Part shown: positions 57,231 through 57,332 of the stretch, piece by piece
Numbering within the stretch: the stretch's first letter is position 1
How the letters are laid out: the number at the start of each line of letters is the position of its first letter
Origin: Escherichia coli
Lineage (GTDB): Bacteria > Pseudomonadota > Gammaproteobacteria > Enterobacterales > Enterobacteriaceae
Direction: 5' to 3' (one strand)
Assembly (NCBI RefSeq): GCF_001677475.2
Contig: NZ_CP015229.1
Length of the DNA: 64,000 nucleotides
The notes under the pieces: model-generated
Seen by the model: the letters and a program-made list of their open reading frames with translations, nothing else
Told to the model about the DNA's origin: nothing
The model's database searches: none
Program-made: the position numbers and the translations under genes

Positions 57231-57332
57231 CATAATGGAAATTTGCACTCTGGCCTAACCCGTTAATATTTCAGCAAAGTGCAAATTTGCGTTCTGTAGC
57301 TGGTGGCTGGCAGAATGTAAATTTACATTCTG
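57231..57332. promoter_or_regulatory. Three AAATTT-centred palindromic sites (candidate protein-binding array)
   Basis: CATAATGGAAATTTGCACTCTG (57231-57252), CAAAGTGCAAATTTGCGTTCTG (57275-57296) and the perfect 22-bp palindrome CAGAATGTAAATTTACATTCTG (57311-57332). Their centres are 44 and 36 bp apart. They lie between two convergent ORFs. Confidence 0.6.

Follow-up and report, generated by a model that had tools for sequence, protein, structure and literature searches.

The 64-kb window of Escherichia coli DNA analyzed here (64,000 nt of contig NZ_CP015229.1, assembly GCF_001677475.2) holds a phage-inducible chromosomal island (PICI) of the EcCICFT073 type, inserted at tRNA-Pro between yejM and yejO/narP. 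Three palindromes lie in the noncoding right arm of this island, between a gene of 93 amino acids (aa) and a convergent gene of 99 aa. We found that they belong to a repeat system of the PICI family, in which boxes resembling the consensus of integration host factor (IHF) alternate with dyads of varying sequence, and that matching units occur in or beside phage genes of the roi, rha, kilA, and ant1 types. With a probability of about 0.42, we propose that the three palindromes are composite sites for IHF and a phage protein of the Rha/Roi/KilA type, which would act as a sink or sensor. The literature searched on PICIs, IHF, and palindromes gave no description of such arrays. The array in the noncoding right arm of E. 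coli PICIs is previously undescribed and its tandem, multiallelic amplification in satellites is new, whereas a single phage gene, studied in 1996, appears to have made the composite module itself known already.

An earlier note on this DNA had described three 22-bp dyads centered on AAATTT, and direct reading of the sequence confirmed all three (Table 1). Their centers are indeed 44 and 36 bp apart, and all fall within the 123 bp that separate the stop codons of the 93-aa open reading frame (ORF; 57214) and the minus-strand 99-aa ORF (57338-57340). The six half-sites have the consensus CAGARTGYAAA in common, with positions 1, 2, 4, 7, and 9 to 11 invariant. A degenerate 17-mer motif, allowing up to 2 mismatches, matched six times on both strands of the 64-kb window, and six of six matches fell in the array (0.31 expected; 0 of 100 shuffles reached 6). 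The window's full array is kept at 98 to 99% in 13 complete E. coli genomes, and parts of it are found in about 57 further genomes. The sequence of site 3 is 100% conserved in every occurrence of the 99-aa gene family, and this site ends 5 nt short of the 99-aa stop codon.

The three sites are real, but together they make up only part of a far larger repeat system that extends through the family. We compared 42 distinct regions downstream of the 93-aa gene, taken from E. coli genomes and viral contigs, and these proved to be mosaics in which units follow one another in tandem, the modal period being 48 bp. Each unit consists of a box, [G/C][G/C]TAAC-NNN-YTGAT-ATTT, followed by a dyad whose sequence varies from unit to unit; of the 62 unique units in relatives, 60 have the dyad center 28 to 30 nt from the T of TAAC. 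Arrays contain 0 to 8 boxes, and the number and order of units vary even between near-identical islands. Across the 42 arrays, 34 distinct dyad cores were observed (e.g., CCTCAATTTGAGG, AGCGCAAAATTGCGCT, TTCGCCAGCGGCGAA, CCCCCATTGGGGG, CAGCCAACGGCTG, and CCAGAGTGCAAATTTGCACTCTGG), of which CCTCAATTTGAGG occurs in 23 of 42 arrays and AGCGCAAAATTGCGCT in 14 of 42. The window contains two such units, in both of which the dyad center is 29.5 nt from the T of TAAC. The stretch between sites 1 and 2, previously taken for a spacer, is the conserved IHF-like box of unit 2, and the stop codon of the 93-aa gene falls within the first box of the array. Site 3 is followed by a box in locus L008, unlike in the window. 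At the position of unit 2, other islands carry CCTCAATTTGAGG or other dyads, in which both arms have changed and the symmetry is retained.

The mosaic resumes to the right of the 99-aa gene and the adjacent perC homologue, where box-less palindromes are found at 58077-58095 (GACTATCTgaaAGATAGTC), 58263-58281, 58279-58300, 58361-58375, and 58425-58435 (CCCCAtTGGGG). Patches of this continuation are homologous to arrays that lack the 99-aa/perC pair (e.g., L040, with 98% identity over 58389-58436), which shows that the pair has been inserted within the array. The same stretch of noncoding right arm includes a (GGCT)11 microsatellite (58164-58209), a candidate for slipped-strand length variation. 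In the model island EcCICFT073 (L090; CFT073 chromosome 1388640-1388850), the array comprises three units in which exact IHF-consensus boxes are followed by TTCGCCagcGGCGAA, CCTCAAATTGAAGAGG, and TCCCCCAtTGGGGGA, together with the further box-less palindromes TTTCCACCAtTGGTGGAAA and TATGGGGATCCCCATA. The linkers between dyads in some relatives (L005 to L007 and L016) are runs of GCTGGTGG or GCTGGTAG heptamers, with four tandem copies of GTAGCTG in L007. In the window, one Chi site is in the linker from site 2 to site 3, and another (58444-58451, minus strand) is close to the end of the island.

Read as its reverse complement, AAAT-ATCAR-NNN-GTTA, the box corresponds to the IHF consensus WATCAANNNNTTR flanked by A/T-rich sequence. 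Enrichment for this consensus was computed only on arrays that had been obtained independently of the box. An initial figure of 2.44 per kb was set aside because many of the loci had been fetched by a pattern containing the box, as was a per-position box profile that was circular at the positions fixed by the selection pattern. The exact IHF consensus occurred at 1.66 per kb in arrays versus 0.18 per kb in whole loci, and 14 of 16 consensus matches in arrays were in the orientation of the box. In the window, the reverse complement of the unit 2 box (TATTAACGGGTTA) agrees with the IHF consensus at 12 of 13 positions, and the unit 1 box agrees at about 10 of 13.

The dyads have the properties of sites in duplex DNA. 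A dyad score of at least 5 at the expected position was reached by 79% of units versus 16% of shuffles, and the dyad arms contain 464 Watson-Crick pairs versus 23 non-Watson-Crick pairs. G-T and A-C mismatches are equally frequent (5 each), and fold energy is alike on both strands (p = 0.45; 69 dyads). Arm symmetry without strand bias is the pattern predicted for duplex-symmetric protein sites, and there is no sign of a strand-specific RNA.

BLAST comparison of a common array with 50,697 phage records returned a sole target, a stretch of about 35 bp within the roi gene of many lambdoid phages. A query composed of other unit types matched other roi alleles as well as rha, KilA-N, "DNA-binding protein," and "anti-repressor" genes, with no other annotated matches apart from two hypothetical proteins. 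Identity between array units and roi, rha, and kilA alleles ranged from 87 to 100% over 21 to 46 bp. In phage HK620, roi holds a whole unit (CCCTAAGTTATTGATTCTTTCGGAAACCTCAATTTGAGGAAGCCGG) on its antisense strand at about nt 110 to 170 of the gene, just past the segment encoding the N-terminal helix-turn-helix; this is the only unit in the HK620 genome, which has no second copy of the Roi dyad. The HK620 Roi protein itself joins a Rha-type N-terminal domain to an ANT/KilAC C-terminal domain. Units are also found in roi of VT2-Sakai, WGPS6, EH2201, and JLK-2012, always at about nt 110 to 175 of the gene, in rha of phi191, and in the KilA-N genes of an Stx2c phage and of ST64B. Because the Stx2c KilA-N gene reads the box in a different frame, the box is conserved as DNA and not as protein.

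Among Roi alleles, a shared recognition helix goes with a shared dyad and differing helices go with differing dyads. The alleles of HK620 and JLK-2012 have the helix KRHDNVKRTIE[T/M]L and the dyad CCTCAATTTGAGG, and those of HK022 and WGPS6 have NVK[V/I]SI[D/E]RL and CTGCAATGCAG; the latter two share helix and dyad despite diverged box and spacer. VT2-Sakai roi pairs the helix SRHDKVKQSIERL with the dyad CCACCATTGGGGG, and EH2201 roi pairs SQHKDVKRSIERL with TTCGCCATTGGCGCA. A single IHF consensus is present in HK022 roi, 12 nt from the dyad. HK022 Roi is reported by Clerget and Boccard (1996) to bind a site within roi that is linked to an IHF site, with IHF stabilizing the binding, and this site may be the unit described here. 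In the phi80 record, the annotation of rha reads "DNA synthesis inhibition in IHF- hosts."

Dyad copies in PICIs equal or exceed the copies in phage coding sequences in symmetry and are never less symmetric. The form CCCCCATTGGGGG occurs in 7 PICI arrays, versus none with the phage form CCACCATTGGGGG; similarly, TTCGCCAGCGGCGAA occurs in 8 PICI arrays, versus none with the phage form TTCGCCATTGGCG. Comparison of TTCGCCAGCGGCGAA (PICI) with TTCGCCATTGGCGCA (phage), and of site 3 with the dyad of phage KP12 described below, gave the same result. The PICI copies therefore look selected and not decayed. As a separate observation, GCGCAAAATTGCGC is a 14-bp perfect palindrome in rha of phi80 (L091, 43739-44293) and phi191 (L088), and its core is the second commonest PICI dyad. 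Although phi80 is a helper of EcCICFT073 and has this Rha-type palindrome in rha, it contains no unit matching the EcCICFT073 array.

The dyad family of the window itself also has relatives in phages. The earlier note had proposed a search of the 22-mer against lambdoid phage operator and immunity regions and other islands; BLAST against phages found nothing, but a pattern search detected the family consensus CAGAGTGCAAATTTGCACTCTG in viral contig L079. Homologous loci of Klebsiella phage KP12 and of an E. coli prophage carry CAGAATGTAATTTTGCATTCTG; direct comparison shows 20 of 22 bases as in site 3, a match too short for BLAST, and the box type is also in common. This dyad forms a complete unit, in which the stop codon of the gene before it lies within the box (GCATAACTCATTGAAATGAAAT), as in PICIs. 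In KP12, the prophage, and L079, the unit sits between the last gene of a P22 immI-like operon and a genuine intrinsic terminator; since this separate terminator follows the dyad in KP12 and L079, the dyad is not itself the terminator in this setting. The operon encodes, in order, Arc/Mnt, a Bro-N/P22_AR antirepressor, and a 250-aa Ant1/KilA-like antirepressor (phrog_1726, 4e-86). Site 2 and hybrids in relatives (e.g., L009, with GCAAAGCGCAAATTTGCACTCTGG) pass gradually into the Rha-type core GCGCAAAATTGCGC.

These observations suggest the following model. The box would be the place where IHF bends the DNA, and the adjacent dyad would be occupied by a phage-encoded protein of the Rha/Roi/KilA type, bound as a dimer. 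The right arm of a satellite would present one to eight units of differing specificity; in the window, it would present three dyads of a single specificity, with the half-site CAGARTGYAAA, as in an operator set. The cognate protein of the window may be an Ant1/KilA-like antirepressor of the KP12 type (phrog_1726). After satellite replication, the array would become a multicopy sink or sensor for the regulators of helper or competing phages. As a side effect, the repeated boxes could form a hotspot for the insertion and exchange of accessory modules, here the 99-aa gene and perC; recombinogenic boxes would explain the variable unit content, the duplicated 3' ends of the 93-aa gene, and the 99-aa/perC insertion. 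The island itself encodes no Rha/Roi/KilA-type regulator. The earlier note had suggested a site for a dimeric protein of the island or its helper; the evidence, which is drawn from sequence, leans in favor of this, and a decoy or titration site for a helper protein is best supported, through the phage-gene modules. A stronger version, in which the right arm is a "library" of decoy operators, copied from the self-binding sites of many phage regulator alleles and sharpened relative to them, seems unlikely to us.

Several observations weigh against composite binding sites. The boxes in the window are degenerate, site 3 is boxless, and the window array contains no exact IHF consensus. BLAST of the window array against the same 50,697 phage records gave no match, and the genomes that carry the window's island show no phage unit of the KP12 type, the nearest being in the Klebsiella phage or a prophage. 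Covariation of helix and dyad is confounded by linkage, the two being 30 to 60 nt apart in the same gene, and the Rha-type core GCGCAAAATTGCGC encodes a conserved RNFA motif, so that coding may account for part of it. No phage match was obtained for many of the box-less palindromes of the arrays. In at least one PICI (L028), the start of the array carries about 60 nt of a KilA-like gene, which is longer than a unit and fits an origin as a gene fragment. Finally, lambda, a proven helper of EcCICFT073, is not known to have roi or rha in its nin region, so the array would not be essential for induction or packaging by lambda.

The L028 fragment bears on the main rival explanation, in which the units are fragments of phage rha, roi, and kilA genes that serve as junctions, or persist as scars, of module exchange between satellites and phages. 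The array would then record repeated exchanges and unequal crossing-over and have no function beyond making a hotspot for cargo. We regard this as possible, if on balance doubtful. The 93-aa gene is present in 1399 of 5426 complete E. coli genomes, but island homology usually breaks at its stop codon, that is, at the first box, and extends through the array in 44; the 3' end of this gene, together with a dyad, is duplicated in L003, L009, L025, and L059. The variation in unit number and order between near-identical islands (0 to 8 boxes), the insertion of the 99-aa/PerC module within the mosaic, and the Chi and Chi-like runs in linkers also fit such scars. It is harder to reconcile with scarring that the same piece of about 48 bp has been kept from at least six alleles or gene families, with fixed geometry and often with a spacing of exactly 48 bp. 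The symmetry of PICI copies, never lower than that of phage copies, is the opposite of decay, and the commonest units are near-identical across many divergent arrays. Scarring is, moreover, compatible with composite binding sites, as their consequence, and the two explanations overlap without excluding each other. We consider it improbable that the palindromes act at the RNA level, as hairpins in 3' untranslated regions that stabilize mRNA, pause or terminate transcription, or insulate cargo in the manner of repetitive extragenic palindromes (REP) and bacterial interspersed mosaic elements (BIME). The array does lie at the 3' ends of two convergent genes, the entire right arm is a series of back-to-back hairpins, and site 3, just past the 99-aa stop codon, folds strongly on both strands (-10.8 kcal/mol, z = -4.4; other strand, -9.8 kcal/mol, z = -5.2). 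Site 3 is, however, the sole strong hairpin of the three: the stems are A/T-rich, and sites 1 and 2 (-2.0 and -4.3 kcal/mol as RNA; z > 0) fold no better than shuffled sequence. The dyads had been judged poor terminators for lack of a U-tract, which agrees with our results, in that no terminator-like site was predicted in 57215-57337 on either strand; an intrinsic terminator, which requires a G+C-rich stem and a U-tract, was rejected. No promoter was predicted in the array, and the covariance models of Rfam 15 gave only chance-level matches to eukaryotic microRNAs and small nucleolar RNAs, far below gathering scores and none inside arrays. An RNA hairpin would also need no conserved IHF-like box at a fixed distance, and it would not account for the lack of G-U excess or strand asymmetry across the 69 dyads, the occurrence of units on the antisense strand inside phage coding sequences, or the separate terminator in KP12 and L079.

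The palindromes could alternatively be operators for the island's own 99-aa protein, perhaps as a barrier to convergent read-through out of the packaging operon. Wherever the exact site 3 variant is found, a 99-aa family gene is present too, even in L008, in which 2.5 kb separate them; the predicted model of the protein is winged-helix-like, and the three dyads share one half-site consensus. Nevertheless, we think this quite improbable: the co-occurrence is mostly physical linkage, given the 5 nt between site 3 and the stop codon, and the 22-mer family is also found in islands without the gene (L009, L028, and L038) and in phage contexts. Support for the fold is weak (one confident model of five; E >= 0.035), and the divergent promoter of the gene itself holds a 32-bp palindrome unrelated to the dyads (57648-57679), which is a more natural operator. 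Highly improbable, in our estimate, is a role in packaging or segregation, as either a cosB-like set of Nu1/Rpp sites with an IHF site or a sopC-like centromere. A cosB was considered initially because of the Nu1-like gene directly upstream (Pfam Nu1, 9e-24) and the IHF-like spacer, and a layout of three sites, the first two separated by an IHF-like element, does resemble the R3-I1-R2-R1 arrangement of lambda cosB. The spacing of about 44 bp resembles that of sopC, the 43-bp units of which each contain a palindrome. The accessory packaging site suggested in the earlier note was not borne out, however, since the island's real cos, with cosQ, cosN, and cosB, was found elsewhere (Table 1): its cosN lies about 1 kb to the left of the array, the Nu1-like and 93-aa genes stand between them, and the motif (up to 2 mismatches) is absent near cosN. 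In relatives, the 93-aa gene is preceded at about 75 bp by an additional, inverted cosN, whose cosB side faces away from the array. Published cosB swaps place PICI packaging specificity in the cosB adjoining cosN (PMC6739421). The suggestion of a centromere fared no better: because dyads differ between units in most arrays of relatives, a single terminase or ParB could not read the array, and no partition genes were found among the ORFs of the island or in annotated relatives.

Other roles were considered and rejected. The PICI replication origin consists of GGTGAACAG iterons that adjoin the primase gene, about 4 kb from the array. Arm sites of the integrase are represented by arm-like repeats with an exact IHF site at about 58514-58580, 1.3 kb from the array and of other sequence. 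The known sites of CRP, Fur, LexA, ArgR, TyrR, PurR, Lrp, and Fis do not appear to fit in spacing or sequence. Integron attC sites and IS200/REP-type ends, which the conserved tetranucleotide at a set distance from a variable hairpin calls to mind, were likewise discarded: the attC core sites misfit, there is no matching recombinase, and the dyads are duplex-symmetric without strand bias.

Among known systems, the Roi/IHF site in HK022 roi (Clerget and Boccard 1996, J Bacteriol 178:4077) and the IHF-sensitive rha genes of phi80 and P22 share the composite of the arrays: an IHF consensus, matched only in part by the window's boxes, and a short dyad at the same spacing. The phage genes carry one unit per genome (as seen in HK620) within the coding sequence of a regulator, whereas satellites carry up to eight tandem units of differing specificity in noncoding DNA; the window dyads measure 22 bp, compared with 11 to 15 bp for Roi-type cores. 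Lambda cosB, with several short protein sites, an IHF bend site between them, and an adjoining Nu1-type gene, resembles the array in layout, but the lambda R sites are nonpalindromic and lie within 170 bp of cosN, whereas the array is about 1 kb from cosN, beyond two genes. The BIMEs and repetitive IHF-binding palindromic (RIP) elements of enterobacteria, in which one linker binds IHF, are also mosaics of palindromes and conserved linkers, located at extragenic 3' ends of operons in variable copy number. REP units, however, follow one genome-wide consensus, whereas array dyads vary by unit, each matching a different phage allele, and are confined to satellites and phages. Clusters of sites outside promoters that sequester or organize a protein include datA (for DnaA), the iteron incompatibility loci of plasmids, and F sopC. 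Such clusters present a single site to a single protein from their own replicon or host, in contrast to the array, with its many specificities and ligands presumed to come from other mobile elements. In the same satellite family, Rpp of EcCICFT073 redirects packaging by exploiting a helper DNA-binding protein through altered DNA sites (Fillol-Salom et al. 2019, PMC6739421). Rpp acts via a satellite protein and the cosB beside cosN, whereas the array is separate, consists of DNA only, and lies about 1 kb away.

Work on PICIs has centered on proteins (AlpA, Rpp, and capsid-remodeling factors), and the noncoding right arm of 0.4 to 1.3 kb has been treated as spacer. If this arm is an ordered array of sites in common with phage antirepressor-type genes, it would indicate a new kind of interaction between satellites and phages. 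It would provide a handle on the long-obscure function of Roi, Rha, and KilA, proteins that are common in lambdoid phages, Stx phages among them, and noted chiefly for toxicity that depends on IHF, and would explain where cargo genes land, including virulence regulators of the perC type. A decoy library, if it existed, would constitute a protein-free, DNA-only layer of conflict, the allelic diversity of which would reflect an arms race. Even as a scar only, the array marks the junction for module swaps between satellites and phages. EcCICFT073, with three clean units, established genetics, and helpers, makes the idea directly testable.

Table 1. Positions of the palindromes, repeat units, and surrounding island features in the window
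Feature	Position	Strand	Sequence or description
Integrase gene	47807-49066		
Primase gene	51410-53215		
Replication origin	53230-53460		Several GGTGAACAG(T) iterons, some in each orientation, on both sides of an A/T-rich segment, directly 3' of the primase gene
cos	56142-56305	+	cosQ GGGTCCT, 56142-56148; exact lambda cosN GGGCGGCGACCT, 56172-56183; island-specific cosB up to the Nu1-like gene
Nu1-like small-terminase gene	56305-56859		Pfam Nu1, 9e-24
93-aa gene	56933-57214	+	phrog_1561, function unknown; last conserved gene of the PICI packaging module
Unit 1	57210-57252	+	Box TAACTTGCTGA (57212-57222), its TAA being the 93-aa stop codon; dyad, site 1
Site 1	57231-57252		CATAATGGAAATTTGCACTCTG; 22-bp AAATTT-centered dyad, 3 arm pairs mismatched
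Unit 2	57254-57296	+	Box CCTAACCCGTTAATATTT, TAAC at 57256; dyad, site 2
Site 2	57275-57296		CAAAGTGCAAATTTGCGTTCTG; 22-bp AAATTT-centered dyad, 3 arm pairs mismatched
Chi	57299-57306	+	GCTGGTGG; in the linker from site 2 to site 3
Site 3	57311-57332	.	CAGAATGTAAATTTACATTCTG; perfect 22-bp palindrome, no box in the window
99-aa gene	57338-57637	-	E. coli-restricted, no known family; predicted model winged-helix-like
perC homologue	57681-58052	+	With the 99-aa gene, a module inserted in the array
Mosaic continuation	58053-58486	.	Right of the 99-aa/PerC module; box-less palindromes

After the origin, the island encodes capsid and decoration proteins homologous to lambda E and D, followed by an AlpA-like gene, cos, the Nu1-like gene, the 93-aa gene, and the array; the 99-aa gene on the minus strand and the perC homologue lie to its right. 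The capsid and decoration genes are homologues of c1499 and c1500, described for EcCICFT073 (PMC6092414). A scan of genome contigs with the 93-aa protein returned one locus, this single-protein query finding close relatives only. Searches of solved structures with the 93-aa, 99-aa, and Nu1-like proteins gave nothing significant. For the 99-aa protein, only one of five predicted models reached a pLDDT (predicted local distance difference test) score of 81, and its weak fold matches (E >= 0.035) were mostly to winged-helix proteins. The 32-bp near-perfect palindrome between the 99-aa gene and perC (CTTATTGTGGGACAGTACTGTCATACAATAAG) fills their 43-bp divergent promoter region and is a likely operator for one or the other gene; its sequence is unrelated to the array.

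The cos of the island is identical to that of lambda up to about 56205, beyond which cosB is island specific. A degenerate, inverted second cos is found at 56858-56905, in which the reverse complement of cosN, AGGTCGCCGCCC, has become TAACCGCCGCCC and that of cosQ, AGGACCC, has become GGGACCC. This inverted copy is intact in Nissle 1917 (L003) and CFT073 (L090), and in many relatives both cos copies, inverted with respect to each other, flank the Nu1-like or rpp gene. The window's Nu1-like gene encodes a full small terminase (about 175 to 184 aa), unlike the 144- to 153-aa Rpp of EcCICFT073. An ORF resembling the gene for single-stranded DNA-binding protein (53745-54044) encodes 99 aa versus 137 to 147 aa in related islands and is probably truncated.

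At the attR side (58514-58651), the arm-like repeats of the integrase are AGCTACACG and AGCTATACG, and the exact IHF consensus is at 58567. A strong bidirectional terminator (58621-58651) directly precedes yejO, the autotransporter ORF of which (58713-61304; 863 aa) is intact; the annotations of the three relatives examined (L001, L003, and L007) list this ORF as a pseudogene carrying an internal stop or a frameshift. The KilA-like fragment in L028, placed downstream of the 93-aa gene, corresponds to part of HK620 hkbK (L092, 18129-18400) and includes the palindrome AAAACCACGAATCTGTGGTTTT. In a 47-kb IMG/VR contig (L068), a PICI with an array (800-5124) is embedded in the major capsid (E) gene of a lambdoid prophage, an arrangement of the published "helper-embedded PICI" type.

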